Shown here: one piece after another, positions 6,933 to 27,283 of the stretch
Layout of the letters: every line of letters begins with the position of its first letter
How positions within the stretch are numbered: the first letter of the stretch is position 1
From: Candidatus Latescibacterota bacterium
Lineage (GTDB): Bacteria > Latescibacterota > CBDEFO01
DNA: 64,000 nucleotides
Direction: 5' to 3'
NCBI GenBank assembly: GCA_965248755.1
Contig: OZ252149.1
Span: forward strand, 384,001-448,000
The notes under the pieces: generated by a model
The model's database searches: none
Seen by the model: only the letters and a program-made list of their open reading frames with translations
Told to the model about the DNA's origin: nothing
Position numbers and translations under genes: made by a program

Positions 6933-7556
6933 ATGAATACGGATGATCTGGTGAACCAAGCTAAAAGAATTATTGAAAGCGGGCGGAGAAGCTCGGGTCC
7001 TGGGTTACTTGCAGAAGCGATGGAATTCCATAGAGTTTATTCAGGTGAAAGAAGCTCTTTCTTTAAGAATCTCAGCAAAGTTGATCAAAAACAGCATGAT
7101 GTATACCTTTCACAAATAGTCGTCAGCAATTTAGAAGCATTTATTAGATATGTTGAAAATGGCCTTCTTGAGGGTATTTCAATTGAACGAAAAGCTCAAA
7201 TCGATGTTGTTTCTGACTTCCTCGATCAAGCGAACACTCTCCTAAATTCAAGAGGCGTCCATCCTGCTGCACCAGCCGTAATCAGTGGGGCTGCATTAGA
7301 GGAATTTCTGAGAAATTGGATCGAAGAATCTGATTTGAACCTGGGAGGTAAGAAGCCATGCTTGGATACTTATGCAAAAGTTCTAAGAGAAGAAGGTGTA
7401 ATAACAAAACAAGATGTTAAGGATATTACTTCATGGGGTGGGCTTAGAAATCATGCTGCTCATGGTGAATGGGATGAAGTGAACGATAAAAATCGGATTT
7501 CCATAATGTTAGAAGCTGTAAATCTTTTCATGAGAAAATATGGTGAACCTGCCTAG
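6933..7556 (+). CDS. HEPN-like (DUF4145-like) protein, possible RNase toxin or defence effector
   Basis: C-terminal GAALEEFLR...LRNHAAHG with R-X4-H HEPN signature; AT-rich coding. Confidence 0.6.
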   Translation: MNTDDLVNQAKRIIESGRRSSGPGLLAEAMEFHRVYSGERSSFFKNLSKVDQKQHDVYLSQIVVSNLEAFIRYVENGLLEGISIERKAQIDVVSDFLDQANTLLNSRGVHPAAPAVISGAALEEFLRNWIEESDLNLGGKKPCLDTYAKVLREEGVITKQDVKDITSWGGLRNHAAHGEWDEVNDKNRISIMLEAVNLFMRKYGEPA

Positions 7557-8769: not shown

Positions 8770-9516
8770 ATGAACAAGGATATAACACCCATACTTGAAG
8801 GATGGGACTACAAATCCGATCAAATATCCGTCAGAAAGATAAAGGGGAGCGACGGCAAAGAGAAGATACAGTTGCGCATCAGTATGGGACTCAGGCAGAT
8901 GGAGGTGTCGGGAAGACCTGACGGACGGAGGCCATACGGCAAGGAGTCCCTCTTGGAATATTATCTTTCCTCCATCGAACAGTATAGAGCCAAATATGGA
9001 ACAGAAGAGGGATTCGGACTGGATAGCAACGATTGCGCCAAACTCCAGTGTGAAGCCATACAATACTACTACAGATACCTGAGCTTACTCGGTCTTGAGG
9101 AATACGAAGGCGTAGAAAGAGACACACAAAGAAACTTGAAGGTCTTCGACTTTGTAAAAAAATACGCCGTTAATAAGGACGACAAATGGGAGTTTCAACA
9201 ATACAGGCCCTACGTAATAATGATGAACACCAAAGCTAAGGGCTCCATCCGCCTTCAGAAAAAGGATTACAAGCAAGCAATGCAAACCATAGAAAACGGA
9301 ATACTAGAGATTGAATGCTTCTTCAGAGAATACAAGAAAGAGGATGAAATTGAAACAAGCTGGGAGATAGCCTTTCTGAAAAACTGGGCAGAAGACGTGC
9401 AATGCACGAGGCCGCAGAGTCCAAAAGCAGATCTTGAAGAACAGCTCAAACACGCCGTGGCCAATCAAGAATTTGAAAGAGCCGCCCAAATAAGAGATAA
9501 AATAAGAAAGATGTGA
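8770..9516 (+). CDS. UvrB/UvrC motif-containing protein
   Basis: C-terminal LEEQLKHAVANQEFERAAQIRDKI UVR motif; N-terminal IQLRI.MGL.QME..GRPDG.RP. Confidence 0.8.
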   Translation: MNKDITPILEGWDYKSDQISVRKIKGSDGKEKIQLRISMGLRQMEVSGRPDGRRPYGKESLLEYYLSSIEQYRAKYGTEEGFGLDSNDCAKLQCEAIQYYYRYLSLLGLEEYEGVERDTQRNLKVFDFVKKYAVNKDDKWEFQQYRPYVIMMNTKAKGSIRLQKKDYKQAMQTIENGILEIECFFREYKKEDEIETSWEIAFLKNWAEDVQCTRPQSPKADLEEQLKHAVANQEFERAAQIRDKIRKM

Positions 9517-9589
9517 TAAGCACAAATTCAACTTTGCTTTAGTGCGAAGTTTTGCTATTTTGCACGGAGAAATACGATCTATCGATATT

Positions 9590-9963
9590 ATGGACATCAC
9601 GGTCGATATGGGCGTTGTAAGACTCGCCGAGAAAGAAAGAATATTCCCCCAGTTGTTCGAGATCCTCGACGAAATAGATATTCCCTCCTTTCACGAATAT
9701 GTGCTTCCAGCCAACACTACTGTAGAGATCCACTACCACGACTTCGACCAATACTGGCTCTTTAGAGAGGGGACTCCCGAGGTCACACTCAGACACCCCG
9801 ATGGGACAAAGAAGGTCTATCAATTAGAGCCCGGAGAGCTCGTAGTCGCCGCCTATAGGGGATAGAGCACACGCTTCATGCCGATCATACGCTCAAATAC
9901 TGCCAGTTTTCGGGAATCAAACGCCCCGGAATCAGACCCGGTCATCTGGTCAGAGAAATGTGA
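9590..9963 (+). pseudogene. Cupin domain protein with 1-nt frameshift
   Basis: Motif 1 HYHDFDQYW is present. Motif 2 (RG-IEH) continues in another frame after GGGG at 9858-9861. Confidence 0.7.
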
Positions 9964-11685: not shown

Positions 11686-13114
11686 ATGCTGAAAATATTG
11701 TTGATTACGCCCCCTATGCATTCGCTCTATCACGCCACCCGTGTCATCCTCCCACCCTTGGGATTACTCTACATTGCGAGCAAACTTGATGCAGATGGTC
11801 ACGAGGTCGAAGTGAGGGATATGACCTTCTTATGAGGGAACTGAATCGTACGACGGGTTCGACCTGGTGGGCATTACGTGCACCACGGCGCAGTATCCTT
11901 CGGTGCTTGAGTATGCCCGTAAAGCTCACGATGCTGGCTGCCGTGTATTGCTGGGTGGAACGCATGTGACCTTTACAACTCAGACGACCCTCAAGCTCGA
12001 CTTTGTCGATTTTGTTATCCGCGGCGAGGGAGAGCTTGCTGCTTCTGCTCTGGCGCGGGAACTTGCCAAAAAGGGCACGCGCTTCGATCCCGCAAAAGTA
12101 CCGAGCCTGTCGTGGTACGATAAAGAAGATGGCGTCGTGGTGGACAATCCGCAGCGTCCCGATATAGAGGCAGTCGATAATCTGCCGGGTCCGGCGCGTC
12201 ACCTTTTGAACATGGAACCTTATAAAGCCACGCGGCTGAGGGGGGTGCCGGTGACCAGTGTGATCACCAGCCGCGGTTGTCCGTACGCCTGCACGTTCTG
12301 TTCTGTGCCGACTTTGTATCAAAAGAGGAAATGGCGCTCGCGCGAGGCACAACTTTCAGTCGACGAGATGGAGCGATTGGTGGAAGAATTTGGATTTAAG
12401 GGCGTATTACTGGTCGACGACCTTTTAACAACGAATGTCAAGCGCATTCATGATCTCTGCGCAGAGATCATCGAACGCAAATTGCAGGTTTACTGGTGGT
12501 GCCAATCTCGAGCTGATATTCTGGTCAAACATCCTGACCTTGTGGAACACATGGCCAAGGCTGGCTGCTCCAATGTCTTTCTTGGAGTTGAATCGGGAAA
12601 TGAGCACGTTCTCAAGTACTGCAACAAAGCGATGAAACTCGATACAGGAATACTAGCGGTTGAGCTTTTGCGCCATCACGGCATCCGAGCGCTCACCTCG
12701 TTTATTATCGGTTTTATGTACGAGACCGAAGCGGACATCGATCGCACCATCGCGTACGCCAGGCAACTGGACGCCCATCAAGCTCAATTTTCTATTTTGA
12801 CGCCTTACCCCGGGACGGTGGACTGGGACAGAACTAAAGATCGTATCTTCGACGACAACTGGGCGAATGTTTCCGGAACCAACACAGTCTTTCATCGAGA
12901 TAGTGTACCGGCAGAACTCATCGAGGAGAAGATAAAGAAAGCGTACCTTTCGTTCTATAACCCCCTGAGACGTTTGGATCGGGTCGTAAAAGGCATCTCT
13001 GGCTTGAGCCTGAAAGGACTGTGGAACGTCTGGCAGACACTTGGGGTCGAAGATCAGGTACAAAACCTCGATCCCTGTCTCCAACTTGACCGCACTTGCC
13101 ACGCCGAATCGTGA
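11686..13114 (+). CDS. Cobalamin-dependent radical SAM enzyme; 1-nt frameshift near 11825-11833 (pseudogene or sequence error)
   Basis: MLKILLITPP...PPLGLLYIA from ATG 11686 stops at 11833. The body (GGTH, RGEGE, SRGCPYACTFC, GVESG, TPYPGT) continues in the +1 frame. Confidence 0.8.
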
Positions 13115-13185
13115 AGAATTCTTCAGCACACTGCAAGAAAGAGTGGAAAGAGACGACCCGGAATTAGATCCAGTCATCTGATCAG

Positions 13186-13242
13186 AGAGCCGAAGCCGTA
13201 ACTTAGAGCTGAAGCCGTAACTTAGAGCCGAAGCCGTAACTT
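13186..13242. repeat. 3 x 19-bp tandem repeat
   Basis: AGAGC(C/T)GAAGCCGTAACTT three times, between convergent radical SAM genes. Confidence 0.9.
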
Positions 13243-13254
13243 GTCAAGGCAAAG

Positions 13255-15036
13255 CTATAAAGTGGATCTCTTGGACTTACACGAAGCTATAACCTTCTGC
13301 GCCTCTTCTATAAAGCTATTGTAAACATCCTCCACCTGCCCCTGATAGTCGCCTTTGATCTTTCGGTATCGTTTCTTTGCCCCTTTAATTAGTTCCCTCC
13401 CGAATTCCCACATGTCAGCTGAAGACGTTTCGTATCCCTTTATCAACTGATCGTAACTCTTACTCAACTGTTTTAACGACTTATCCAGGTAGGAATTCAA
13501 CTCGTGCACGTCAGACGCCTGCTGAGTAATTGTAATCAAATGATGGCCGAAGATAGCGCTCCTGATAGCTGAAGGAAAATCCTTCAGATTGTATATACAG
13601 ACCTTAGCTAGAAACGACCAATATTGCCACTTGTAGTTCCCCCTAAGGCCCTGTCTATAGATAGAATTGAACAATCCTCTAATTTCAGTTTTCCCGACCG
13701 GAGGAATAACAATCGGTGCTCTTTCCTTAATCTTCAAATACTGCAGAGCGCGCTTGAAGTAAACTTTGGGGCTGTTTAGGGTCTCTACAATCTTCTTGTG
13801 ACGCCCCATTATCACGCTGGGATCTATCTGGTTGCCATCTCTGTCGTGAGGTATGTAGCTCAACTGGTCTGTAAAGATTCCCGAATTCCCCGTGTACAGC
13901 TTGTCGGTCAATCTACCTGCTCTATCATACCTTATATAGTCAGGTGTGCCCCTCATAACCCCTAAAGGCCCGACCATAGCTACTTCGATATTGACGCTGT
14001 TGATAAAATCGATCATTATTTCGGATATATCATCCGGATCGGTGTCGAAGCCGACTATAAAACCCGCCCAGACTTTAAAGTACCTCTTTTCGATCTCGAG
14101 GACCTTTTCAAGCATTGATTTCCCCTTGACCAGGTTCTTTTGAGCGCCCATAAATTTGAGACTTTCCGCCGACGGAGATTCCAATCCGATAAAGACGGAA
14201 TCGAATCCCGCCTGATACATGGCCTCCATCAAATCGGGATTATCGTACATTTTCAGGCTGGCTTGAGTATAAAAATGAAAGGGATAGCAGCGCTCTTTTT
14301 GCCAGGGGATGATTTTTTCTAACTTCATCAAAACTTCCTCCTGATTACCCACGAAATTATCGTCGGCGAACATAACAGATCCACGCCATCCCAACTCATA
14401 AAGATAGTCCATTTCTCGGATAACCAACTCCTCTGTCTTCAGCCGGGTCGTCCTTCCATAGAGTCCCGGGATGTCGCAAAAAGTACATTTTTCAGGACAG
14501 CCGCGGGTAAGCTGAATAATCATGCCAACATAATCGGATAAATCAAGTAGATCGTACCTCGGGAGTGGAACCTCCTCTAAACTTCGGAACTGGCCTTTCG
14601 TATCTATTACGCTCCTTTTGATCTCCCCAGGTGAGTACAACATCTCCTCCAGGGCATCGGCAAACCCATTTTCCGCCTCGCCTAAGAAAAAAGTAGCGTT
14701 GCCCTCTATCAAATCGTGGTACTGGGTCGGATAGGGTCCACCCAGCATGATCGGAGTTTCCAGACGATTACACCTCTGAATTATTCCCCTTACAGACTCT
14801 TTATGAATTATCATCGAAGAACATAAAACCGCGTCCGCTCCTTCAATCGCTTCGTCCGTGAGCGGTTCAACATTCATATCGATCAGTCTTGGATTATACC
14901 CTTCGGGCAGCAGCGCGGCCACCCCCAATAATCCTAACGGGGGCTGAGCCGCTTTTTTTCCCAGCAGCTTCAAAGATTCAGTAAAGCTCCAAAAGGTAAT
15001 AGGGTTTTCTGGATAGACCAACAGTATATTGGGCAT
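13255..15036 (-). CDS. Cobalamin-dependent radical SAM enzyme with DUF4070-like C-terminus (HpnP-like family)
   Basis: LLVYP...TFWSF...PPLGLL.VAALLP, GGPY, GEAE, RGCPEKCTFC, DDNF, GFIVGFDTD. Confidence 0.85.
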   Translation of the reverse strand: MPNILLVYPENPITFWSFTESLKLLGKKAAQPPLGLLGVAALLPEGYNPRLIDMNVEPLTDEAIEGADAVLCSSMIIHKESVRGIIQRCNRLETPIMLGGPYPTQYHDLIEGNATFFLGEAENGFADALEEMLYSPGEIKRSVIDTKGQFRSLEEVPLPRYDLLDLSDYVGMIIQLTRGCPEKCTFCDIPGLYGRTTRLKTEELVIREMDYLYELGWRGSVMFADDNFVGNQEEVLMKLEKIIPWQKERCYPFHFYTQASLKMYDNPDLMEAMYQAGFDSVFIGLESPSAESLKFMGAQKNLVKGKSMLEKVLEIEKRYFKVWAGFIVGFDTDPDDISEIMIDFINSVNIEVAMVGPLGVMRGTPDYIRYDRAGRLTDKLYTGNSGIFTDQLSYIPHDRDGNQIDPSVIMGRHKKIVETLNSPKVYFKRALQYLKIKERAPIVIPPVGKTEIRGLFNSIYRQGLRGNYKWQYWSFLAKVCIYNLKDFPSAIRSAIFGHHLITITQQASDVHELNSYLDKSLKQLSKSYDQLIKGYETSSADMWEFGRELIKGAKKRYRKIKGDYQGQVEDVYNSFIEEAQKVIASCKSKRSTL

Positions 15037-15225
15037 TTTTCTGCAATCCTTTATCTAAAATCCTTTAAAATACCTAAAAAAACCAAAGCATCTTGTTACT
15101 TGAAGGACAAAAGTATCGATACGCTGATTCTAAAGTTCGTAATATAACACTATGGCGATGCAAAGTCAAGCAAAAGTTTAAGAGCATAAGACACTAAATA
15201 TCAATCACTTTACTGTGCCACACCA

Positions 15226-15498
15226 TTCAACCCACATTCTGACCGAAAAGACGTGTAAAACGCCTGTTAAGTGAAAATGCTTTTGTTCTGTCTCTACAAA
15301 ATAATATAATTTGTATAATGTTAAGCTGCGCACAACAACTATCGATAGAGATAGAAAATGCCAATTTAACATTTATCAGAACCATTAGCAATTACCTCAA
15401 TTGTTCCAAACCGTTCAACCCACAATCTGACCGAAAAGACGTGTAAAACGCCTGTTAAGTGGAAATACTTTTGTTCTGTCTCTGTAAACAGATATAAT
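15226..15498 (+). promoter_or_regulatory. Duplicated ~85-bp promoter module (two copies, 188-bp period)
   Basis: TTCAACCCACA.TCTGACCGAAAAGACGTGTAAAACGCCTGTTAAGTG...TTTTGTTCTGTCTCT...TATAAT at 15226-15310 and 15414-15498. Confidence 0.75.
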
Positions 15499-15713
15499 TA
15501 CCACAAGTACACGCACCGATGGAAATAGCAACTATTAGCAGTGAAAGCTAACGAAGTTGAGCCTGATCAGTTTCATAAAAGTAGGGAAACCTTAAAAAGT
15601 AGGTAAAGAGACGTATTATTTTGACATATTAGCAGAAAAAGAGCAAGAAACGACAGTAGACAACCAACAGTAGACAACCAGTAGACAACCTTAATAGAGA
15701 AGAGAGGTGCAAT

Positions 15714-17489
15714 ATGGCGACCCAGCCAATCGTAAAGGGCGGACTTCTGGAGATCTCCTCAATCGAGGATGATATACGGCAGAAGCTCGAAGAGGAAAGA
15801 AAGCGGTTGATGGTGGAGGAAGGGATCGAAGAGAAGCATACACACCACTTCGAAAAGCCCATAGAAAACGCCTTCACCGCCGATCAAAGAGATCACACGA
15901 CTATCCTCTTCGGCGGGCTCACCTGGAAGCACGAACACCTGATTCACGGAGCATTAGAATCCCTTGGCTACAAGTGCAAAAGCGTTCCCACCCCCGATGT
16001 TGCGGCATTCCAACTCGGCAAGGAATACGGCAACAACGGACAGTGCAATCCCACATACTTCACAGTAGGCAACCTCGTCCAGTACCTCCAGAAGCTGGAG
16101 GAAGGGGGGATGGACAGGAAAGACATAATTGATAACCACGTCTTCTTCACCGCAGGGGCGTGCGGTCCATGCAGGTTCGGAATGTACGAAGCTGAATATA
16201 GACTCGCCCTTAGAAATTCAGGCTTCGACGGCTTCAGAGTCCTCCTCTTCTCGCAGTCCGGCGGACTCGACCAGGCGGAGGTCGAAGCCGGACTTGAGAT
16301 GAACCTCGACTTTTTCCTCGGAATACTCAACGCCCTTAACATGGGCGATCTAATAAATGAAGTGTGCTATGAGATTAGGCCCTACGAGGTGAACGAAGGG
16401 GAAACTGAAAGGGTCATGAAGGAGTGCATGGACGATATGCATGACGTAATAAAGAACAAAAAACCCTTACAGTTAGATGGCAAAATTGGGAGTTTTCTGA
16501 AAAAGTTCCCCAGCGTCTTCGACAAATCTCTATATCTAGGTAAATTTCTAGAGCAGCTATTCGGCGACAAATACACCAATGCCCTTGAAGAGGTCAGAGA
16601 TCGCCTCAATGAGATAGAAGTGGACCGCACCAGAGTCAAGCCTCTAGTCAAGATTACGGGCGAGTTTTGGGCGCAGACCACAGAGGGCGACGGCAACTTC
16701 AACATGTTCCACTTCCTGGAAAGAGAAAACGCTCAGGTGTTAGTAGAGCCCATCGGGACGTGGATTACATACATGATTCACCAGGCAAAGCAGGAGACAA
16801 CAGACAGAAGTGGCATAAAGGAAGGCGAAGAGCCTCCCGCTTGGTGGCAACTTGATAAGCGCTTCTCCAACGCTTTTGCCTACAGGAAAAAAATGGGAAG
16901 CCTCTCAATTGCAGAGAAGATTTTTAAGAGAGAATACGACAAGATTCGCGAAGCCTTGGGAGGTACAGCTCACGGGCTCACCGACCAGTACGAGCTCCAG
17001 AGGCTCGGGCACACCTTCTACAACTCCAGAGCAGGAGGCGGTGAAGGACACCTCGAGGTCGCCAAGAACATCTACTACAGCAACAAAGACCTCTGTCACA
17101 TGGTGCTCTCCATGAAGCCGTTCGGCTGCATGCCCAGCACTCAGAGCGATGGCGCGCAAGCCGCAGTTGTCTCCCAGTACAAGGACATGATCTACCTCCC
17201 TGTTGAGACGTCCGGTGAAGGCGAGATTAACGCCCACTCCAGAGTACAGATGGCACTCGGCGAGGCAAAAATCAAGGCCAAGAACGAGTTCAAAGAAGTC
17301 CTTGAAAAGACCGGGCTCACAGTAGCGGAGGTCAAAGACTACGTTGAAAGACACCCCGAACTCAAGCGGCCTATGTACCAGGTTCCTCATCAGAAAGGAT
17401 TCGTAAGCGTTGCATCTAACTTCGTGCTGCACATAAAAGAACGCATGGATGCAGAAGAAGGCAAAAAGGACGCAAAAAAAGCCGCATAG
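15714..17489 (+). CDS. 2-hydroxyacyl-CoA dehydratase/reductase-like Fe-S protein (PlsR-like)
   Basis: GQCNP, GACGPCRFG, ITGEF, GGEG, PFGCMP motifs. Confidence 0.8.
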   Translation: MATQPIVKGGLLEISSIEDDIRQKLEEERKRLMVEEGIEEKHTHHFEKPIENAFTADQRDHTTILFGGLTWKHEHLIHGALESLGYKCKSVPTPDVAAFQLGKEYGNNGQCNPTYFTVGNLVQYLQKLEEGGMDRKDIIDNHVFFTAGACGPCRFGMYEAEYRLALRNSGFDGFRVLLFSQSGGLDQAEVEAGLEMNLDFFLGILNALNMGDLINEVCYEIRPYEVNEGETERVMKECMDDMHDVIKNKKPLQLDGKIGSFLKKFPSVFDKSLYLGKFLEQLFGDKYTNALEEVRDRLNEIEVDRTRVKPLVKITGEFWAQTTEGDGNFNMFHFLERENAQVLVEPIGTWITYMIHQAKQETTDRSGIKEGEEPPAWWQLDKRFSNAFAYRKKMGSLSIAEKIFKREYDKIREALGGTAHGLTDQYELQRLGHTFYNSRAGGGEGHLEVAKNIYYSNKDLCHMVLSMKPFGCMPSTQSDGAQAAVVSQYKDMIYLPVETSGEGEINAHSRVQMALGEAKIKAKNEFKEVLEKTGLTVAEVKDYVERHPELKRPMYQVPHQKGFVSVASNFVLHIKERMDAEEGKKDAKKAA

Positions 17490-17502
17490 GGAGAACTTAC
17501 AG

Positions 17503-17537
17503 GAGGAGCCAGGGCGAAAACCCCGGTTCCTCCTCCT
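17503..17537 (+). terminator. Intergenic stem-loop
   Basis: GGAGGAGCCAGGG-CGAAAA-CCCCGGTTCCTCC with a weak U tail; attenuator or stabiliser. Confidence 0.45.
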
Positions 17538-17588
17538 TGAAACGAATGGCTATATTTAGCTATAAATGCCCACTAGGAGCGGATTTAT

Positions 17589-20500
17589 ATGAGCACGGAA
17601 AATAATATAGATAGCTTGTTGGTCGGACTGGACGTTGGCTCCACCACCGTAAAATTCATCGTAGTCCACCCGGACACAGACGAAATCCTCTTGAAGGACT
17701 ACCAGCGGCACGATACCAGACAGCCGGAAAAGGTGATGGAGTTCTTAACTCAAATAGAGGACGAGTTTGGACTCCCTACGGAGAAATACCGCATCTTTAT
17801 AACAGGGAGCGGCGGTAACGCGGTTGCGGACTACTTAGGTGCAAAGTTTGTCCAGGAAGTCAACGCTGTATCCCTGGCCGTCGAAAAGCTCCATCCTGAG
17901 GTAGGATCGGTCATAGAGCTTGGAGGTCAGGATGCCAAGATCATCATCTTCGTGGAGGACCCCGAGACCGGCAGAAAGAGGAAGATCCCCAGCATGAACG
18001 ACAAATGCGCAGGGGGAACAGGAGCAGTTATAGACAAGATCAACGCGAAACTGCGCATCCCCCCGGATGAGCTCTGCGACCAGGGATACTTCGGCATCAA
18101 GCTCCACCCTGTCGCAGGAAAGTGCGGCGTCTTTGCCGAGACAGACGTCAACAGCCATCAAAAATCGGGCGTTCCAAGAGATGAAATTATGGCGTCCCTC
18201 TTTGAAGCCATCATAGGACAAAACTTAAGCGTCTTAACAAGAGGAAACACACTAAGGCCAGAAGTTCTGCTCCTTGGTGGACCCAACACCTTCATAAGAG
18301 GTATGACCGAAGCATGGAAGTACAACATCCCCAAAGTCTGGGAGGAAAGAAACTATCCCCTGCCTGAAGGCGTAGACCCTCAAGACCTCATCAAAGTCCC
18401 CGAAAACGCCCAGTACTTCGCCGCCATAGGCGCAGTCGAATTCGGAAAAGGGGAGGAAGAAGAAATAGGTGTCTATAAAGGCACAGCTGACTTAGAGCAC
18501 TACATGAACGTCGGTCGGCTTGAGGAGAAGCAGAAGGCGGGAGGAAAGGGACTCGCCGAAACTCCCGATGAACTTGCGGCTTTCATGGAAAAATATAAGA
18601 CGAAAAAGTTCATCCCCGCCACCTTCTCCCCCGGACAGGTCGTCGAAGGCTGCATTGGAATCGACGGCGGATCTACCTCCACAAAGGCTGTCCTTTTGGA
18701 CAAGGACAGAAACGTCCTTGTCAAATCCTACCAGCTTTCAAAGGGAAATCCCATCGAGGACACCATAGAGGTCGTAGGAAAGGTACGAGAGCAGGTTGAG
18801 GAGCAGGGAGCGACGCTAAAGATCGTGGGAGTCGGCACAACAGGTTACGCAAAAGACGTCCTGAAAGATGCGGTCGCCGCAGACGTAGCGTTAGTCGAAA
18901 CAGTCGCACACACGGAAGCCGCCCTCAAGTTCTACGATAAAGTTGACGTCATCTGTGATGTAGGCGGACAGGACATCAAGATCATGATCCTCAAGAACCG
19001 CCAGGTCAAAGACTTCAAGCTCAACACACAATGCTCTGCAGGAAACGGATATTTTCTACAAGGTACTGCGGAAGGCTTCGGCTTTACCGTCGAGGAATTT
19101 GCCGATATAGCCTTCGGCGCGGAGTCCATGCCCATGTTCGGCTACGGTTGCGCAGTCTTCATGCAGTCCGACATAGTTGACTTCCAGAGACAGGGCTGGA
19201 AGCCCGAGGAGATAATGGCAGGGCTTGCCAACGTCCTCCCCAAAAACATCTGGCTCTACGTCTCACAGATACCCAATATAGCAAAGCTCGGAACCAACTT
19301 CGTCCTCCAGGGCGGCACACAGTACAACCTGGCTGCCGTAAAGGCACAGGTGGACTTCATAGAGGCCAGGTTCAAAGACCAGGAGGAAAAAGCCAGGATT
19401 ATCGTCCACGAGCACTGCGGAGAGAGCGGAGCAATAGGCTCGGCCATTGAAGCTGTAAGGCTGTGGGAGAACGGAAAAGAGACTTCATTTATCGGTCTGG
19501 ATGCTGTCGAAGCTATCACTTACCAGACCCACAGAGACGAGAACACCCGCTGTTTCTTCTGTAAGAACAAGTGCCTCAGGACATTCATAGACGTAAAGGT
19601 CAGCGACGAAGAGGTCTCAGACGCAGGATCCAAAAAGTCCAAGATACCCATAGAGACCGGCTTTAAGAGACTCATCGTCGGAAATAGCTGTGAAAAGGGA
19701 CTCGTCGAAGATATAGAGGACATGCGGGGCATCAAGGAGGGACTCGATGAAGCCAAAGCCCAAAACCCCAACCTCGTCGAGTTAGCCGCAAAAGAGGTCT
19801 GGAAAAGCTACAAACCCGAAATAGTGGCAGAGCCGATCCCAAAATACGCCTTCACAAAAAAGGCCAAAGAGAGCGTACAAAAGATAAAAAGCCGACAGGA
19901 GATCAGAATCGGCATACCCCGCCTTTTGAATATGTACTCCATGAATCCTCTCTTTAGCGCATACTTTGAGGCGATAGGAATCCCTCCAAGGAACCTCGTC
20001 TATTCGGATTTCACCACACAGGAACTATACAAAGAGGGAGCAAAGCGTGGCTCGATAGACCCCTGCTTCCCCAGTAAGGTAGCTATACCGCACGTCCATA
20101 ACCTCCTCTACGTCCATCACAAGAAGAAGCCGCTGGAATACATCTTCTTCCCCATGATAGACTCCATCCCGACCGATCTGGTCAACGTACAGAGCAGCAG
20201 AGCCTGTCCCACAATTACAGCCACACCCGAGGCGGTCAAAGCCGCATTCACCAAGGAGGGCGACCTCTTCAAAGAGATGGGAATCGAATACCTGGATACG
20301 TTTGTCACTATAGACGAACCTGAGCTCTTCCAGAAGCAAATGTTCGAGGAGTTCGGACCCAGGTTTGGACTCTCCAAAGAGGAGAACAGAAGAGCTGTCG
20401 AGGAGGGCTACAAGGCTTTAGACCACTTCAACAATGTAGTCCAGAGAGGCAAAGGAAGGGAAGTCCTCGATATGCTAAAAGCCGAAGACAAGCTCGGTAT

Positions 20501-21098
20501 AGTCCTTCTGGGACGTCCATACCACAACGATCCCGGAATAAATCACGAAATAATGGAGGAGTTCACAAAGCTCGGCTATCCTGTCTTCGCCGAGGACACA
20601 CTTCCCATAGACGACGATATCCTTTGGGAACTCTTCGGAGAAGAGGTTGAAAAGGGTATAATATCCCATCCCTTGGACATCGCCGACGCCTGGAAGAACT
20701 CCTACAGCGAGAACACGAGCCGCAAGGTCTGGGCGGCAAAATTTACAGCCAGACATCCCAACCTGGTCGCTTTAGAACTCTCCAGCTTCAAATGTGGACA
20801 CGACGCTCCTATCTACACAGTAGTAGAAGAGATCGTCGAAGACTCCGGAACGCCCTCTTTTTCGTTTAAGGACATCGATGAAAATAAACCCGCAGGATCT
20901 ATCAAGATCAGGGTTGAGACAATCGATTACTTCCTCAAGAGATACATGGAGGACATGGTCCGTGAAAACAAGAAGACGGCAAAGGTCGAGAATAGGCTGA
21001 AAGAGTTCGAAGACCGACTCAGACGGGAATTGACAGAAAAGGGAACCCTCGATGGAGTCGAGGTAACCCAAAAAGAGGAAGAACTCGTAACCGCATAG
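17589..21098 (+). CDS. CoA-substrate activase with two BadF/BadG/BcrA/BcrD ATPase domains plus DUF2229-like reductase domain (PlsA/Ger-like)
   Basis: DVGSTT..ELGGQD..NDKCAGGTG..CGVF; DGGSTS..DVGGQD..NTQCSAGNG..CAVF; CFFCKNKC; CFPSK, SFKCGHD. Confidence 0.88.
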   Translation: MSTENNIDSLLVGLDVGSTTVKFIVVHPDTDEILLKDYQRHDTRQPEKVMEFLTQIEDEFGLPTEKYRIFITGSGGNAVADYLGAKFVQEVNAVSLAVEKLHPEVGSVIELGGQDAKIIIFVEDPETGRKRKIPSMNDKCAGGTGAVIDKINAKLRIPPDELCDQGYFGIKLHPVAGKCGVFAETDVNSHQKSGVPRDEIMASLFEAIIGQNLSVLTRGNTLRPEVLLLGGPNTFIRGMTEAWKYNIPKVWEERNYPLPEGVDPQDLIKVPENAQYFAAIGAVEFGKGEEEEIGVYKGTADLEHYMNVGRLEEKQKAGGKGLAETPDELAAFMEKYKTKKFIPATFSPGQVVEGCIGIDGGSTSTKAVLLDKDRNVLVKSYQLSKGNPIEDTIEVVGKVREQVEEQGATLKIVGVGTTGYAKDVLKDAVAADVALVETVAHTEAALKFYDKVDVICDVGGQDIKIMILKNRQVKDFKLNTQCSAGNGYFLQGTAEGFGFTVEEFADIAFGAESMPMFGYGCAVFMQSDIVDFQRQGWKPEEIMAGLANVLPKNIWLYVSQIPNIAKLGTNFVLQGGTQYNLAAVKAQVDFIEARFKDQEEKARIIVHEHCGESGAIGSAIEAVRLWENGKETSFIGLDAVEAITYQTHRDENTRCFFCKNKCLRTFIDVKVSDEEVSDAGSKKSKIPIETGFKRLIVGNSCEKGLVEDIEDMRGIKEGLDEAKAQNPNLVELAAKEVWKSYKPEIVAEPIPKYAFTKKAKESVQKIKSRQEIRIGIPRLLNMYSMNPLFSAYFEAIGIPPRNLVYSDFTTQELYKEGAKRGSIDPCFPSKVAIPHVHNLLYVHHKKKPLEYIFFPMIDSIPTDLVNVQSSRACPTITATPEAVKAAFTKEGDLFKEMGIEYLDTFVTIDEPELFQKQMFEEFGPRFGLSKEENRRAVEEGYKALDHFNNVVQRGKGREVLDMLKAEDKLGIVLLGRPYHNDPGINHEIMEEFTKLGYPVFAEDTLPIDDDILWELFGEEVEKGIISHPLDIADAWKNSYSENTSRKVWAAKFTARHPNLVALELSSFKCGHDAPIYTVVEEIVEDSGTPSFSFKDIDENKPAGSIKIRVETIDYFLKRYMEDMVRENKKTAKVENRLKEFEDRLRRELTEKGTLDGVEVTQKEEELVTA

Positions 21099-21110
21099 TA
21101 TCTGTAGAAA

Positions 21111-21145
21111 AGATGCCGCTCAGGCTTTCAACTTGAGCGGCATCT
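21111..21145 (+). terminator. Stem-loop after the activase gene
   Basis: AGATGCCGCTCAGG-CTTTCAA-CTTGAGCGGCATCT; no U tract. Confidence 0.55.
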
Positions 21146-21161
21146 GATAAGGAGTAGAAGT

Positions 21162-21440
21162 ATGCTAGAATCTGAGAGGATCATGTTCGAAATCTACAAA
21201 GAGGGAGGGTATCACGAAAGAGGATACGACGTCGTCTATTACACGGAGTTAGACGATCACGATAAAGAAACAGAGATAAACAGAGCCATGGCCGGGGAAC
21301 ACTTCTACAACGGTTTTATCAAAGAGTTTAAAAAGGAAGAAGCCAAAAGGATAATAGAACGCATAATTGAAAGACTCAACAACGGTGAGGAAGTAGACCC
21401 TAAGGATGTTGATAGCGAATTAGCAGAATATATACCTTAG
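21162..21440 (+). CDS. Small acidic hypothetical protein
   Basis: AAGGAG RBS; 92 aa with VVYYTELDDH...EINRAMAGEHF. Confidence 0.8.
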   Translation: MLESERIMFEIYKEGGYHERGYDVVYYTELDDHDKETEINRAMAGEHFYNGFIKEFKKEEAKRIIERIIERLNNGEEVDPKDVDSELAEYIP

Positions 21441-21495
21441 ACCAAGTAGACAGGCGCCTTCCCCCTGTCTAGCAGACTAAAAAGGTGGTGCAACT

Positions 21496-21975
21496 ATGGA
21501 AAGCGTGGTCCTTTACGGAGGCTTAACAGTCCTTCTTACACTTTACGTGATCAATCTGAGAAGCGCCTCTAAGCTGAAAGAAGAGCTTGAATTTATAAAA
21601 GATTCTATAGATGGTGTTCGAAGGCACGTAAATGTCTCCAGCGAAGATATGAAGCAACAGATGGGCAGTATGATAAAAAAGGAGTTAAGAAAGCTCAACG
21701 GAGATGCCATATTTCACAAAGACATGACCGTCGCTGAAGCCTTACGGCTCCATACCAACGCAGAAGTAGTTATGTCCAACTTTCATCTGGGAGGATGCTC
21801 AAGCTGCAGCATTACTGAACAGCATGTTCTGGGCCCCGCGGCTGAAGGCTACGGAGTCGATATAGATGCCCTTTTGGAGGCACTGAACGGTCTTTTGGAC
21901 GGAAGCGAGACCCCGGAAGCTCAGAATCACCCGCAAAAGGATAGCGAACTGCTTGATATATCCTTAAAACAATAG
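21496..21975 (+). CDS. Membrane-anchored DUF1858-like (hybrid-cluster-associated redox) protein
   Basis: N-terminal TM helix; FHKDMTVAEAL...HLGGCSSC...YGVDIDALLEALN. Confidence 0.65.
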   Translation: MESVVLYGGLTVLLTLYVINLRSASKLKEELEFIKDSIDGVRRHVNVSSEDMKQQMGSMIKKELRKLNGDAIFHKDMTVAEALRLHTNAEVVMSNFHLGGCSSCSITEQHVLGPAAEGYGVDIDALLEALNGLLDGSETPEAQNHPQKDSELLDISLKQ

Positions 21976-21985
21976 GCAGTAAATA

Positions 21986-22048
21986 GTAGGCGCGAATACA
22001 TGTGTTCGCGCAACTCGAGGCAGACAGACGGCTCAGCCAGCCTCCTAC
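21986..22048. repeat. GTAGG...CCTAC REP-like element
   Basis: GTAGGCGCGAAT-ACAT-GTGTTCGCGC ... CCTCCTAC. Confidence 0.45.
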
Positions 22049-22056
22049 AAATTCCG

Positions 22057-22089
22057 TGCCGGAAGAAAGCTTGTTCTTTCGGCATTTTT
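22057..22089 (+). terminator. Rho-independent terminator
   Basis: TGCCGGAAGAA-AGCTTG-TTCTTTCGGCA-TTTTT. Confidence 0.65.
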
Positions 22090-22137
22090 CATTGTAACAT
22101 CTGACAAATAGAAGATCTCTTCTTTGGTACTCAGTTT

Positions 22138-22794
22138 ATGAATACAAAAGAAGTATTTGAAAAATATAGATTCATCGTAGGTCTTGTAGAACAGGAGTTT
22201 GACCGCAATCTTCGCATCTATCAGGACCAGATACTGTGTGGCAAAGGATGCTCATCCTGCTGCAGTCAGATGTTCAGGATCACGCTCATCGACGCAGCCC
22301 TGGTTTCGCGCTCTGTCAAAAGATTAGATACTTCTGCCCGCAACAAGATGCAAGAAAGAGCAACTATCTATCTGCGTGAAAAAAAAGACCTAATCCGTCA
22401 AAGAGCCGAAGAATCCGGCGCGCTTCTTGTAGACAACGGTGAAGAGATCTCATCGCTCGGACTCAGACTCCCCTGCCCAGCCCTTGTGAACGACGCCTGC
22501 TCCATCTACGAATCACGACCGCTAATATGCCGCAAGTACGGTATCCCCTTGTACGATCCGACTACCCCAGAACGACTCTACGCCTGCGAACTCAACTTTG
22601 AACCAGGACGGGAGATCCAAGACGACGAACTAATAGAAAGACAGACCGAAATATGGGAACACTGGATGGAGCTCAAGACAAGCGTCAACGAGGCTTTAAA
22701 TCCCGGGAACAAAGTGACGACCATCGCTGAGGCTATCCTATTCGACTACGATGAGATGCTAAAATTGAGTCTTTCCAAACCCAAGGAACTCTAA
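22138..22794 (+). CDS. YkgJ family cysteine cluster (CxxxCxxCC) Zn/Fe-S protein
   Basis: CGKGCSSCC...CPAL...CSIYESRPLICRKYG...C. Confidence 0.85.
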   Translation: MNTKEVFEKYRFIVGLVEQEFDRNLRIYQDQILCGKGCSSCCSQMFRITLIDAALVSRSVKRLDTSARNKMQERATIYLREKKDLIRQRAEESGALLVDNGEEISSLGLRLPCPALVNDACSIYESRPLICRKYGIPLYDPTTPERLYACELNFEPGREIQDDELIERQTEIWEHWMELKTSVNEALNPGNKVTTIAEAILFDYDEMLKLSLSKPKEL

Positions 22795-22807
22795 ACGGAG
22801 GAATGCT

Positions 22808-23455
22808 TTGGACATAGGGCAAGAGGATAAAATATCCCTTACAGAATATTTAGGCTGTATGCATGCCTTCGTAAATGTATTTATTATGGAACTCTACACG
22901 GTAAGAGACTTCGCCAAGCGACTTGAAAAGGTGGACAGAGCGAGCTCCTTCGGGTGGGAATCTACTCTTGACAGAGCGCGAAACAGAGCCCCCATAGTCC
23001 TCGACCGCTGGAAGCACTTCAACGACAGATTCCGGGACAAAATAACAGTAGACCAATATGAAGAAAAGCACTTCGGAGCCTACGTGCCGCTTTTCGAAGA
23101 ATACAAGCACACCTGCGACCGACTATACGCGATTTTGGAAAAGTTAAACAGATACGCTGACGAAATTGTAGAATTCAAGGCTGAAGAAGTTATCAGACTC
23201 GAAGGTTATATAGAGGAAATGATGGCTGCAATCAACCGAGAACAGAGAGCCTCTTCCTCTGTCGCCTCCACCTTAGAGAGGGGAACGCCGGACGATCTAA
23301 AACTTCAGGATCCATTTCAGGCTGAATTGATTCAGATCAATTCAGATCCAATTCAGAAAGAGACTGCAAAATACTTCAGGTTCTTTGTTGAATCCCGTGA
23401 TATCTTTCACAGAGACCTGAACCTTGGAGTAAGAGGCCAGCAATATAGTGGATAG
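22808..23455 (+). CDS. Hypothetical helical protein
   Basis: GGAGG RBS, 215-aa ORF in operon context; no family recognised. Confidence 0.7.
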   Translation: MDIGQEDKISLTEYLGCMHAFVNVFIMELYTVRDFAKRLEKVDRASSFGWESTLDRARNRAPIVLDRWKHFNDRFRDKITVDQYEEKHFGAYVPLFEEYKHTCDRLYAILEKLNRYADEIVEFKAEEVIRLEGYIEEMMAAINREQRASSSVASTLERGTPDDLKLQDPFQAELIQINSDPIQKETAKYFRFFVESRDIFHRDLNLGVRGQQYSG

Positions 23456-23807
23456 ATCACATAGAAAAAAGGGTGTCTTCCGGTGGCTTTCTGAGTTCGC
23501 GCTTGACAAAGATGTAAGTGACGCTGTAAAAGCGCAGAAAAAAGTGGGCGAATCCTACCCAGAATTTTCCGAGGGACACTACAACCTGGGTATTCTCCAC
23601 TACAGCCAGGGCAAAGTTCAGGAGGCCATAGAGTCCTACAAGAAAGCTATTCAAATTGATCCCAAAAATGCCAAAGCTCACAAGAACCTCGGTGAAATCT
23701 ACGCCATCCAGGAACAATACAACCTGGCCTGGAAGCACGCCGAGATAGCCGAAAGTCTTGGAAATTCAAAACTGATGGATATGCTAAGAAGATACTTAAG
23801 GCAGTAG
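23448..23807 (+). CDS. Tetratricopeptide repeat protein
   Basis: HYNLGILHYSQGKVQEAIESYKKAIQIDP; AHKNLGEIY. Confidence 0.85.
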   Translation: MDRSHRKKGVFRWLSEFALDKDVSDAVKAQKKVGESYPEFSEGHYNLGILHYSQGKVQEAIESYKKAIQIDPKNAKAHKNLGEIYAIQEQYNLAWKHAEIAESLGNSKLMDMLRRYLRQ

Positions 23808-23889
23808 ACAGGCCTCATCTTGATCTATCGGGAAAGCGTAGAGCCTTTAGCCCACAGCAAAGCAAAGGGTCTGCGAAGCAATCTATTCC

Positions 23890-23927
23890 CGTAACCTGTC
23901 TACTTATTCGTAACCTGTCTACTTATT
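23890..23927. repeat. 2 x 19-bp tandem duplication
   Basis: CGTAACCTGTCTACTTATT twice. Confidence 0.85.
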
Positions 23928-23949
23928 CGGAGATAGATTTGCTCAGATT

Positions 23950-24260
23950 CGGGATGTTCAAACTTTCGGACATCTCTTATCCGTCCTCTTCTGGTAAGGA
24001 CGAACCATCTTCCTCTTTGCCGGATCACACCGACCTCAAAGAACATCACATCCAATCCTCAGAATGACCGCGCACTTCATGACATTACACAACGCTTCAT
24101 AAGATTCGGATGGATAGCCATATAGATACTCATATGTACAGGACCATTCAGCGCCTCAATTCGAGGAATAGTAGCTACCTGTCACTACAACCCGACATGT
24201 CTGTATCTTTTGGCCCTCAAAACCAATATCGTAGTCATGCTTATAATCGGCCATACCCTT
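23950..24260 (-). pseudogene. Possible highly degenerate IS200/IS605 TnpA remnant
   Basis: Minus-strand fragments MADYKHDYDIGF, IEALNGPVHMSIYMAIHP and GKEE/MVRPYQKRTDKR weakly resemble TnpA segments in the right order. Confidence 0.3.
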
Positions 24261-24363
24261 CATTCGTCCTACCTTGGAAGATCGTTTTAAATTCTTTATG
24301 AGCAAGATCTGGAACGTCCACTATCCTGCTTCTGGCTCTTATGCTCGGATCGTCCTGAAATTA

Positions 24364-24389
24364 GCAGGGGCAGACCCACGGGTCTGCCC
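24364..24389 (+). repeat. REP-like hairpin (second copy at 28194-28219)
   Basis: GCAGGGGCAGACCC-AC-GGGTCTGCCC; near-identical GCAGGGGCAGACCCGCGTGTCTGCCC at 28194. Confidence 0.7.
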
Positions 24390-24498
24390 TGAAGATAGGG
24401 ATAATCGGGCGAACCACTTCCCCGATTGAATCTAGCAGGGATGGCATGTCCCCCCATCTCCTCGCTACTACAACACCAGTTCACGCCCACAAATGTCT

Positions 24499-25890
24499 TT
24501 AAAATAAGCTCCACTGAGCTTGGAAGTTTAGCACTTCCTCAGTTTCGATCTCTCCCATTTCATTTAGGGAATGCAAGAACCTCGCATCCACCAAAACGCC
24601 CAGCCCGTCAACAATGTCGAAGCCTATCAGGTACCCGAAGAGCGTATCGGGAGTCCTGTCGAAGAACCTGGCCTCATTCGTATCTATATTATACTTCTCG
24701 TAATAGACCTCCGCTCTATTGAGCCTCGGAACCTGCACTAACATCTCAGGCAGGACATATGCCCTTGCCAAAAGCCTCTGATCGGAGGCGTCTCCTTTTC
24801 CCATCAAGTTCTGATAAGTTATAGACACGCTAAAAATATCAAAAAAGTCCGATCTTACCTTTCCAAACACACCGTCCAGATCCGCATTTCGGAGTGAATC
24901 CTCCTTCGTAAACACACTATCCGATCCTGCAATTATCCTTGCCCTTTCGACCTCATAGAGACTGTTAAAATACTCAGGTTCAAATCTGTTCTCAATGTGC
25001 CGGTATTCCACCTTTGCAAGCAGGGGACCGGCCTTCAACCTGATCCCCGGTGCCCCCCAACCCCATCCTATAGTATCTATAGTATCTATTTTAGTATCTA
25101 TAGTATCTCGATTTTCATCCACATCGTCCACGTTTCGCGCATACTGACCGTAGACTGACAAATTCAGATTTTTGCGCTGAACTAAAGGATAACCTAAGTC
25201 TATCCCCCACATCCCGAAAGCATCTGCAGAGAGAGTATCCGCTGGGAAAGATCCGTCTGAGAGACCCAATCCACCGTATTGATTTATGTCCATAACAAAC
25301 GTAAAGCCCACCTCTAAATCCCCAATTGACGGCTTGGCCGCCACACGACCTCCCAGGAGACTCCCCTTTCTGTCGAAATCCTGAAAATCGTTCAACACAA
25401 ACTGGAATCCGAACCCGGAACTTGAGATTTCTCTCAACTCCAATTGGATTCCCGTCTTCTTCACGCCTGGATACCTCAAGGTGTTCCTGTAACCCTCCAT
25501 TATGAACCCATATCCTAAAGACACGTCTTCCAGTGCGCCCAGTCTTATGTGAACCCTCTCGCCCGGATCGCCGTATCTGATGTAATATATCTTTCTCAGA
25601 ACGCTGTTGATCGATTTCGACCCTGATTCAAAGTCCCACGACTTATCTGAAAAATCCCCGTCGCTATCCATAAAGAGTTCCACATCGAGTCCTATCCCAA
25701 ACTTCTTGTAAGAAAACTCCGGTCTTAGGTTAAACCTGAACCACTGCTCGTCGTCCACTGCCACACTCCCAAGCGATATACCCGCCTCCGTTTTCCCTCT
25801 ATCCAGAGGCTGACACATACCCTTTAAGCTCCAAAGGAAGACGCTCATTATCACTAATATGCTCTTGAAGATGAACCCTGTTTTAGTCAA
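24499..25890 (-). CDS. Hypothetical exported, probable outer-membrane beta-barrel protein (start approximate)
   Basis: Signal-like N-terminus, alternating beta-strand pattern, C-terminal Phe; internal DTIDTKIDTIDTI microrepeat. Confidence 0.65.
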   Translation of the reverse strand: MTKTGFIFKSILVIMSVFLWSLKGMCQPLDRGKTEAGISLGSVAVDDEQWFRFNLRPEFSYKKFGIGLDVELFMDSDGDFSDKSWDFESGSKSINSVLRKIYYIRYGDPGERVHIRLGALEDVSLGYGFIMEGYRNTLRYPGVKKTGIQLELREISSSGFGFQFVLNDFQDFDRKGSLLGGRVAAKPSIGDLEVGFTFVMDINQYGGLGLSDGSFPADTLSADAFGMWGIDLGYPLVQRKNLNLSVYGQYARNVDDVDENRDTIDTKIDTIDTIGWGWGAPGIRLKAGPLLAKVEYRHIENRFEPEYFNSLYEVERARIIAGSDSVFTKEDSLRNADLDGVFGKVRSDFFDIFSVSITYQNLMGKGDASDQRLLARAYVLPEMLVQVPRLNRAEVYYEKYNIDTNEARFFDRTPDTLFGYLIGFDIVDGLGVLVDARFLHSLNEMGEIETEEVLNFQAQWSLF

Positions 25891-27283
25891 CACTTTCAAC
25901 CTCCCAGTCGGGCATATCAGTCTCCTGCCTGTGAGTTTCCAATTCCCGGAACGCCGCATATTTATCCACCCATGAGAGCATCACTGTCCCTGTGGGACCG
26001 TTCCTCTGCTTGCGGATAATAATCTCCGCCACGCCTTCTTCTATCGGATTCCCCTCTTCATCCTTCTCGTCATACATCGACGGGTGATAGACGAACATCA
26101 CCACATCTGCGTCCTGCTCGATAGCGCCGCTTTCTCTTAAATCCGACAGCTGCGGTCTCCTGTCCCCCCCCCTCAGCTCCACCGCCCGTGAAAGCTGTGA
26201 TATAGCTATTACAGGAATGCGCAGCTCTTTTGCCATAGACTTTAAAGACCTGGATATATAAGAAATCTCCTGCTGCCTGTTCTCGGATCTCATGTGAAAT
26301 GACATTAACTGGAGATAATCCACTATGACTAAACCGACACTGTGCTCAGATAGTAACCTCCGTGTCTTTGCCTTCATCTCTAAGACATTGATCGAAGGAG
26401 TATCATCTATATAAAGAGGAGCCTCGGCAAGCTTACCCACATTTCTAGCCAAGCGATTCCATTCATCATCCCTCAATCCCCCCATCCTCAGCTTTTGTGA
26501 ATCTACACTCGCCTCGGCACACATAAGCCTTTGAGCCAACTGGCTCCCGGACATCTCAAGGCTGAATATCCCGACACCTACTTGCCTGTCCACAGCTACA
26601 TTTCGAGCCACACAGAGCCCGAGGGCGGTCTTACCCATAGAGGGGCGGCCCGCTACAATAATAAGATCTCCCCTTTGAAACCCAGCCGTCATATCGTCAA
26701 GCTCACGGTAGCCTGACCGCAATCCCGGCAGATAATCTGTCCTTTTATGCGCCTTCTCAAGCTCATCGAACTCCTCGTGGAGAATTTTTTCTATTACTGT
26801 GAATCCTGTACGCAGATTCATCAGTTGCTCCGATAGACTGAATATCCTCTCCTCAGCCGTGTCGATCAATTCGCGCACATCCCCCACATCCTCATAAGAC
26901 TCACTGGTTATCTGAGTCGAAAAGGTTATAAGCTTTCTTAATAAAGCTTTGTTTAAAACGATCTTAGCGTGATATTCAACGTTGGCTGAAGTCGCCACAT
27001 CTCCCGCCAGTGTCGCGAGATAATACGCTCCTCCTACCTCCTCAAGCTGACCCCTTCTTCTCAACTCCTCGGAGACCGTGATCTGATCTGCCTCTTCATC
27101 CCTTTCAAAGAGAGATACCAGCGTAGAATATATCTTCCTGTGAGCGTCCCTGTAGAAGGAGTCTTCATGCAGAATCTCAATAACCTTCGCAATCGCCCCT
27201 TTATCGATCAGCATCGCCCCCAACACCGCCGTCTCTACATCCACAGCCTGAGGCATTACCCTTTCATATGAAACTTCAGCCAT
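25883..27283 (-). CDS. dnaB: Replicative DNA helicase
   Basis: AGRPSMGKT, FSLEM, VDYLQL, SQLSR, SDLRESGAIEQDAD, KQRNGPTG. Confidence 0.97.
   Translation of the reverse strand: MAEVSYERVMPQAVDVETAVLGAMLIDKGAIAKVIEILHEDSFYRDAHRKIYSTLVSLFERDEEADQITVSEELRRRGQLEEVGGAYYLATLAGDVATSANVEYHAKIVLNKALLRKLITFSTQITSESYEDVGDVRELIDTAEERIFSLSEQLMNLRTGFTVIEKILHEEFDELEKAHKRTDYLPGLRSGYRELDDMTAGFQRGDLIIVAGRPSMGKTALGLCVARNVAVDRQVGVGIFSLEMSGSQLAQRLMCAEASVDSQKLRMGGLRDDEWNRLARNVGKLAEAPLYIDDTPSINVLEMKAKTRRLLSEHSVGLVIVDYLQLMSFHMRSENRQQEISYISRSLKSMAKELRIPVIAISQLSRAVELRGGDRRPQLSDLRESGAIEQDADVVMFVYHPSMYDEKDEEGNPIEEGVAEIIIRKQRNGPTGTVMLSWVDKYAAFRELETHRQETDMPDWEVESVD

Follow-up and report, generated by a model that had tools for sequence, protein, structure and literature searches.

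A 64,000-nucleotide stretch of a Candidatus Latescibacterota genome (assembly GCA_965248755.1, contig OZ252149.1, positions 384,001 to 448,000; hereafter the window) carries, at window positions 11686 to 23807, a putative ether-lipid locus consisting of a two-gene Fe-S reductase (plsR-plsA), five small downstream genes (s1 to s5) and, upstream of the pair, two B12-binding radical SAM genes (rSAM1 and rSAM2) and a deletion scar. The genome of the window, a single contig that is 98% complete, is designated G000, and the sister genome G001 was used as the reference. The intact core of the locus is formed by plsR, plsA and s1 to s5. Its features are as follows.

11686 to 13114, plus strand: rSAM2, encoding a radical SAM protein with a B12-binding domain, disrupted by one extra base each at about 11831 and about 13073 when compared with G001
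13186 to 13242, no strand: three tandem copies of a 19-bp repeat, located between rSAM2 and rSAM1, which converge
13255 to 15036, minus strand: rSAM1, 593 amino acids, intact, with B12-binding, radical SAM and DUF4070 domains
15214 to 15499, plus strand: two direct copies of a 98-bp sequence (15214-15311 and 15402-15499), which in G001 is found upstream of the Tes-like gene
15406 to 15619, plus strand: deletion scar, at which DNA from upstream of the Tes-like gene (to about 15614) meets the final part of a TetR remnant (beginning at about 15619)
15714 to 17489, plus strand: plsR-like subunit, long form, 591 amino acids, HAD/BCR-type fold, three invariant Cys
17589 to 21098, plus strand: plsA/Ger-like subunit, 1169 amino acids, two BcrAD/BadFG ATPase activator domains and DUF2229
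21162 to 21440, plus strand: s1, 92 amino acids, candidate accessory factor without Pfam match, usually directly 3' of plsA
21496 to 21975, plus strand: s2, hydrophobic N-terminus and a TIGR03980 hybrid-cluster-associated redox disulfide domain (CxxC), above cut-off
22138 to 22794, plus strand: s3, CxxCxxCC zinc- or iron-chelating protein (PF03692)
22808 to 23455, plus strand: s4, 215 amino acids, without Pfam match
23448 to 23807, plus strand: s5, short TPR protein

The plsR and plsA genes are two separate open reading frames (ORFs) 100 bp apart, each present in a single copy in G000. PlsA contains two PF01869 stretches followed by PF09989, corresponding to the BBD layout by Pfam, and matched HAD and BCR activators in a PDB search. 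PlsR yielded no Pfam or NCBIfam match, no PDB sequence match and no sequence match to the C-terminus of PlsA, and PF06050 was absent from the 41 aligned PlsR members, in all of which Cys111, Cys153 and Cys472 are conserved. Nevertheless, its structural model (pLDDT 81.5) returned HAD/BCR/DCCP-family chains in all of the top 12 Foldseek rows (best E 1.4e-4, TM about 0.3). From the reductase scan the best 80 of 584 loci were kept, 79 of them from other genera; after exclusion of two loci lying in unpublished genomes (L031 and L036) 77 loci were counted, upstream genes being scored in loci with at least 5 kb of upstream sequence (n = 61) and downstream genes in those with at least 3 kb of downstream sequence (n = 49). 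The closest homologues among these best 80 loci were 64-72% identical and came mostly from Acidobacteriota, a phylum that includes producers of brGDGTs (branched glycerol dialkyl glycerol tetraethers), and plsR preceded plsA in all 70 loci holding both genes. An earlier interpretation made from the letters alone (the sequence-only reading) had described the first ORF as a hydroxyacyl-CoA-dehydratase-like protein and the second as two activator domains plus a DUF2229-like domain; the fold of the former and the domains of the latter bear this out. The reductase-first order which it had pointed out is real, but is a rule of the clade and not peculiar to the window. RNA-library contigs (X13) span parts of plsR and plsA, although level and strand are not readable from contigs; an Rfam search of the window gave no match, and a sigma-70 scan of positions 15037-15720 gave 3 sites versus 1.9 expected by chance, so that no promoter is claimed.

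Among the closest described systems is the Solibacter pair. The printed domain coordinates of Acid_0922 (353-621 and 771-1003) are nearly identical to those of the window PlsA (356-620 and 773-1004), as far as coordinates rather than sequences can be compared, and its partner Acid_0921 is, by the printed description, likewise a long protein without PF06050, the plsR-like gene coming first by locus tag. The 1169-residue layout together with these coordinates upholds the PlsA/PlsR/Ger-like assignment, also put forward in the sequence-only reading, and the pair is most likely a split, reductase-first Fe-S reductase of the Solibacter type. In the accessible text of Halamka et al. (PMC10087280), Acid_0921/Acid_0922 are proposed as PlsAR homologues providing the ether-forming step for branched tetraethers, and thus the ether-forming role of such a core is a hypothesis already in print; the accessible parts of PMC10087280 and PMC13023045 present both the ether-forming and the coupling steps of bacteria as hypotheses. 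Unlike the Solibacter pair, the window pair resides in Latescibacterota, is followed by s1 to s5 and has, in G001, a Tes-like gene upstream. With PlsA/PlsR of Clostridium perfringens (CPE1195/1194) it shares the division into two genes, the tandem activators plus DUF2229 and a dehydratase-like partner, whereas the gene order is reversed there, PlsR has about 411 instead of 591 amino acids, PF06050 is absent here and the host of the window locus is aerobic, as it encodes cytochrome oxidase subunit I (COX1). A BBD core with two activation domains is also common to Ger of Thermotoga maritima (Tmari_0479), which is one polypeptide whereas the window system is split.

The small genes were found to be associated with the pair beyond the window. 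Downstream of plsA (49 loci), s1 was present in 26 cases, s5 in 13, s2 and s3 in five each, s4 in two and a Tes-like gene in three; s4 also occupies the equivalent position in L191. The identity of s1 across phyla is 44-64%. In the reverse test, 23 metagenome s1 loci had 3 kb or more of upstream sequence, and in 16 of these plsA lay there; among the others are near relatives of a single rearranged locus and one match that was weak. Taken together, the downstream counts and the reverse test define plsR-plsA-s1-(s2-s3-s4)-s5 as the conserved unit. The s1 model (pLDDT 89.9) had no Foldseek match at E 0.001 and a best VIA Z of 3.8, which is not evidence of a new fold, and protein-atlas searches with s1 and s4 gave hypothetical or weak matches only. 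The five ORFs that had been taken for Fe-S accessory genes do exist, but Cys motifs occur only in s2 and s3, the translations of s1, s4 and s5 holding a few scattered Cys at most, and s5 is a TPR protein. On four marine contigs (L196, L202, L194 and L206) s1 or s1-s2 stands beside cysteine-desulfurase-like, Rrf2-like or respiratory genes, named from their translations; such neighbours are in line with a role in Fe-S maintenance.

Comparison with G001 revealed that about 4 kb of G001 are missing at the scar, comprising a Tes-like, putatively chain-coupling radical SAM gene, an IS1182-like insertion sequence (IS) copy and a TetR remnant. In G001 the complete interval separating rSAM1 from plsR contains two IS1182-like copies, the Tes-like gene, a further IS (the third) and a 3' segment of TetR. 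Around the second IS, a 4-bp target duplication occurs in a sequence that runs uninterrupted in the window, and the first IS likewise lies in a stretch common to both; since the window shares both insertion sites, the Tes-upstream DNA is native to the locus. In the window this upstream DNA is kept as far as about 25 bases ahead of the start codon, where the TetR end takes over, the junction being spanned by a contig of run X1, while run X6 carries other DNA upstream of 15619. No Tes protein match above the MoaA level (73.5 bits) and no tes DNA match was found in G000. TetR also lies 5' of plsR in two other loci, which makes loss in G000 the simpler reading. As shown by this comparison, the ancestor of G000 and G001 appears to have had the Tes-like gene directly upstream of tetR-plsR, and G000 to have lost it. 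G001 has a second, intact tes copy (L121 9939-11810) on another contig, the plsR-side copy carrying a 2-base insertion. The two copies stand in an IS-tes-IS arrangement (L121 8141-13540 and L024 3068-8470) and are 99.8% identical over 5.4 kb; an IS1182-like composite transposon is a possible route of horizontal tes spread, or the arrangement may be an assembly duplicate.

The best NCBIfam family for the G001 protein is Tes, and L045, a relative, matched Tes/GDGT-MAS (PDB 7TOL) at E 2.7e-63. PF04055 spans residues 166-328, compared with 166-330 in Solibacter Acid_2410, and of the four 7TOL metal sites the Zn-ribbon, the radical SAM site and the C-terminal Cys region are present and the N-terminal cluster motif is missing. 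The gene would thus represent a distant bacterial type, together with Acid_2410 and the homologue of the brGDGT producer E. aggregans, which has only a 32% Tes homologue by the printed score. Of the 79 loci of other genera, 50 entered the reductase/Tes genome set, giving 48 genomes after removal of two unpublished ones: a close Tes-like gene was detected in 40 of these 48 genomes, which had been chosen for the reductase, and tes lay no more than 10 kb from plsR in four of them, in addition to G001. Acidobacteriota were also sampled evenly (119 genomes, two unpublished ones excluded): a close Tes-like gene was present in 8 of 9 genomes with long PlsR versus 40 of 110 lacking it (p 0.007 when the centre genome is omitted, a value that, like the other co-occurrence values, is overstated by kinship among genomes).

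The second B12 radical SAM gene named in the sequence-only reading is present but not intact. It lies on the plus strand, convergent with rSAM1, and the frame from ATG 11686 stops after 49 codons, whereas its orthologue in G001 (L104 10089-11582) is intact and encodes 497 amino acids. With a dN/dS of 0.36 against G001, versus 0.37 for plsR, rSAM2 is not singled out. In all 168 genomes of the phylum, close rSAM2 orthologues (defined by at least 68% identity; 68-100%) were found in 11, forming one supported clade that follows the families in a quick tree. A Tes-like gene, present in 26 of the 168, accompanied rSAM2 in 10 of these 11 genomes, the exception being G000 itself; in the four families concerned, 10 genomes have both genes, one has rSAM2 only, 15 have tes only and 32 have neither. 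Linkage was direct in G247 and G248, and one gene intervenes in G238, the other six being unlinked.

Six more distant rSAM2 relatives (40-44%) were over the threshold in the phylum and a seventh, partial one was also seen; one of the seven lies by Tes, five by radical SAM/SPASM genes of about 470 amino acids and one by neither. The genes flanked by the rSAM2 relatives in L260, L261, L263, L265 and L266 are of two types with N-terminal extensions; they are possibly Mss- or Gms-like, gave no family-model or structure match and were not taken as evidence. No printed source was found for a supposed link of Mss with DUF512, which was dropped. Three rSAM2 relatives of 37-39% in the Acidobacteriota sample were all in genomes without a close Tes-like gene. 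Judged by this distribution, rSAM2 is a candidate modifier of coupled lipids, either a methylase or a ring-former, and methylation is the likelier activity because most B12 radical SAM enzymes methylate. The archaeal enzymes Gmm (a GMGT methylase) and GrsA/B (GDGT ring synthases), compared here by gene context and not by sequence, resemble it in that it is a B12-binding radical SAM gene whose orthologues cluster with a lipid-coupling radical SAM gene; Gmm, a lipid methylase, was itself found via gene clustering according to the accessible text of PMC11214058. Unlike Gmm, rSAM2 is bacterial, has a Tes-like partner instead of Gms and is broken here.

For rSAM1 the sequence-only reading was correct as regards the divergent orientation and the domains. 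HpnP, the hopanoid C-2 methylase, bears DUF4070, and rSAM1 shares its B12-binding, radical SAM and DUF4070 domains. The proposed HpnP-like hopanoid methylation, however, lacks a route to its substrate, as no squalene-hopene cyclase (TIGR01507) match was found in G000, G001 or G007. The gene is under constraint (dN/dS 0.20), stands in an unrelated gene context in G007, and has an orthologue of about 50% identity in one of the 48 reductase-bearing genomes, on another contig. It is a vertically inherited core enzyme whose place at the locus may be incidental. Since G000 yielded no B12-binding radical SAM gene beyond this one and rSAM2, another lipid is a possible substrate of rSAM1. A short metagenome contig (L208) has an rSAM1-like start divergent from s1, a single case that was not weighed.

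From these data the locus is probably what is left of a cluster, specific to the lineage, for ether lipids and membrane-spanning lipids, composed of the reductase core, a lost Tes and a decayed rSAM2. By analogy with HAD/BCR family chemistry, the ATPase domains of PlsA would bind a [4Fe-4S] cluster via Cys140/179 and Cys482/521, and ATP would drive low-potential electrons into a dehydratase-like pair made up of the C-terminal domain of PlsA (Cys826/873/1069) and PlsR (Cys111/153/472), which would convert a phospholipid ester, by reduction of its carbonyl, into an ether, alkyl being more likely than vinyl. The products of s1 to s5 would perhaps assemble or protect oxygen-labile clusters in a host with cytochrome oxidase. 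In an organism with Tes, rSAM2 would methylate (or cyclise) the coupled lipid, and it would have decayed after loss of its substrate, so that G000 would make mono- or diether lipids and no coupled lipids by this route, while G001 has the full gene set. A locus for membrane-spanning lipids had already been suggested in the sequence-only reading; the G001 Tes-like gene and the co-distribution of rSAM2 with Tes speak for it, and the missing linkage of the B12 genes to the pair in other genera speaks against it. The chain cross-linking suggested there probably does not take place by this route in G000, where rSAM2 is broken and tes is gone.

Several observations weigh against this interpretation. 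The G001 Tes-like protein scored 326.9 bits, below the equivalog cut-off of 450 bits (NF045702), and lacks the N-terminal cluster motif, and L045 is likewise without the N-terminal cluster ligands of archaeal Tes. None of 34 other tes neighbourhoods holds rSAM1, rSAM2 or the reductase pair. Sixteen of the 26 Tes-like genomes (15 of genus g25, and G314) have no close rSAM2, and a lower threshold applied to four of these 16 gave no rSAM2 orthologue either; rSAM2 is therefore optional. The DUF2229 gene was absent from five tested genomes with both rSAM2 and tes, which implies that rSAM2 follows the coupler and not the reductase. No close rSAM2 orthologue occurred in the 119 Acidobacteriota, and thus it is not the methylase behind brGDGT methylation in Solibacter. 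The quick tree leaves the 40% group unjoined to the close clade. PlsR and PlsA are only 18% and 26% identical, respectively, to a canonical-order pair of the same phylum. Finally, the neighbouring genes u2 and u3 also differ from G001 by insertions or deletions, and decay or assembly error is hence not confined to rSAM2.

The most serious alternative, which we regard as rather unlikely, is that the reductase operon is the ether-lipid unit and both B12 genes are unrelated neighbours, rSAM2 tracking tes via shared ancestry and loss. The sequence-only reading had made linkage in related genomes decisive, and neither rSAM1 nor rSAM2 was near the pair in any of the 61 loci of other genera. Moreover, rSAM1 is single-copy in 57 of 58 genomes of the four families, including 29 of 31 genomes of family f7 without Tes, and in family f12 (L277-L279) the rSAM2 orthologue was observed in a housekeeping position, between genes that are trmD-like and rplS-like by their translations. 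On the other hand, physical linkage of rSAM2 to tes was seen in another three genomes, which belong to two other families, a 43% rSAM2 relative follows a Tes above the NCBIfam cut-off in G010, the presence of the two genes agrees genome by genome within genus g26 and family f7, and no B12-binding radical SAM gene besides rSAM1 and rSAM2 was found in G000.

It is unlikely, to a somewhat greater degree, that the pair makes plasmalogens (vinyl ethers) like PlsA/PlsR of C. perfringens rather than alkyl ethers. The split into two genes would agree with this, and Ger and PlsA are, in the accessible text of PMC13274423, not separable from sequence. However, Solibacter, with the same type of pair, makes saturated iso-C15 mono-, diethers and tetraethers (accessible text of PMC10087280), and short-chain plasmalogens were not detected in sponge lipids, as far as the available part of bioRxiv 2026.06.23.733905 reports; the same part mentions BBD-only ger matches in metagenome-assembled genomes (MAGs) of sponge Latescibacterota. 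According to PMC13159169 BBD is the part that every alkyl-ether producer has conserved, and a correlation of two activation domains with alkyl ethers is described there and in PMC13274423. By analogy, an alkyl (Ger-like) product is more likely than a vinyl ether.

A non-lipid function, with a CoA ester as substrate and the pair as an ATP-driven reductase or dehydratase of the BCR/HAD family, is improbable. It would suit the closest solved structures (DCCP, HadBC, BzdNO and MbdON) and the distance of the clade from canonical pairs, but PlsA has the fused tandem activators plus DUF2229 of the PlsA/Ger layout and not stand-alone activators of about 270 amino acids; the scores for the fermentation HAD/benzoyl-CoA reductase equivalogs TIGR02259, TIGR02261 and TIGR03192 were far under cut-off; no conserved CoA-transferase or fermentation cluster was seen near 82 loci (judged from sequence, only some of them scanned); and the pair co-occurs with, and is sometimes linked to, a Tes-like gene. 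Very doubtful is the assumption that errors of assembly account for both the frameshifts of rSAM2 and the absence of tes, in an organism with the full cluster: the window letters are supported by run X1 only, which is probably the source sample and hence not independent (depth 3-5), and the plsR-side tes copy of G001 itself has an insertion, but the X1 contigs match the window without gaps across both rSAM2 insertion sites and the deletion junction, rSAM2 carries two separate insertions relative to G001 whereas plsR, plsA, s1, s3 to s5, rSAM1 and dnaB carry none, and the tes DNA and protein matches are absent from a 98% complete single contig.

Returning to the remnant of an ether- and membrane-spanning-lipid cluster, a further step may be proposed tentatively: rSAM2 might represent a bacterial B12 radical SAM family modifying Tes-coupled lipids, a counterpart of Gmm/Grs, with G001 containing at one locus the full route to modified branched tetraethers (ether-forming reductase and its accessory proteins, coupler and modifier) and G000 being a natural loss mutant of the last two steps. 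In the literature searched no paper was found that names a bacterial brGDGT methylase or describes s1 to s5, although the supplements of PMC11214058 and bioRxiv 2026.06.23.733905 may hold rSAM2-like genes and the MAG genes in question, respectively.

Some other features of the window were recorded. At 8770-9865, genes for a UVR-motif protein and a cupin-like ORF show three indel events each relative to G001. ORFs at 24499-25959 (486 amino acids, overlapping the end of dnaB) and 6933-7556 (207 amino acids) had no Pfam match, and at 47490-50765, on the minus strand, three tandem ORFs of 325 amino acids with neighbours of 342, 372 and 416 amino acids had none at E 1e-15. In the intergenic region 23808-24498 lie two families of short dispersed repeats that occur many times in the genome, among them a 2 x 19-bp tandem (23890-23927), and a GC-skew change near 24 kb tracks the gene strand.

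Altogether, the locus is a known kind of system in an unusual and informative state. Its gene content, the linkage counts, the deletion scar, the frameshifts and the co-distribution are observed, and all enzyme activities are inferred. brGDGTs are in wide use as proxies of past temperature and pH that depend on chain methylation and rings. In this respect the gene set of G001 is compact, and the two genomes, G000 and G001, form a natural pair in which absence and presence can be compared. Through the conserved small genes it may become clear how a reductase that is oxygen-labile can operate in aerobes. If the proposed functions are true, the distant bacterial Tes type would be a coupling enzyme that is movable on a transposon, and marine Latescibacterota would be a source of methylated brGDGT-like lipids.

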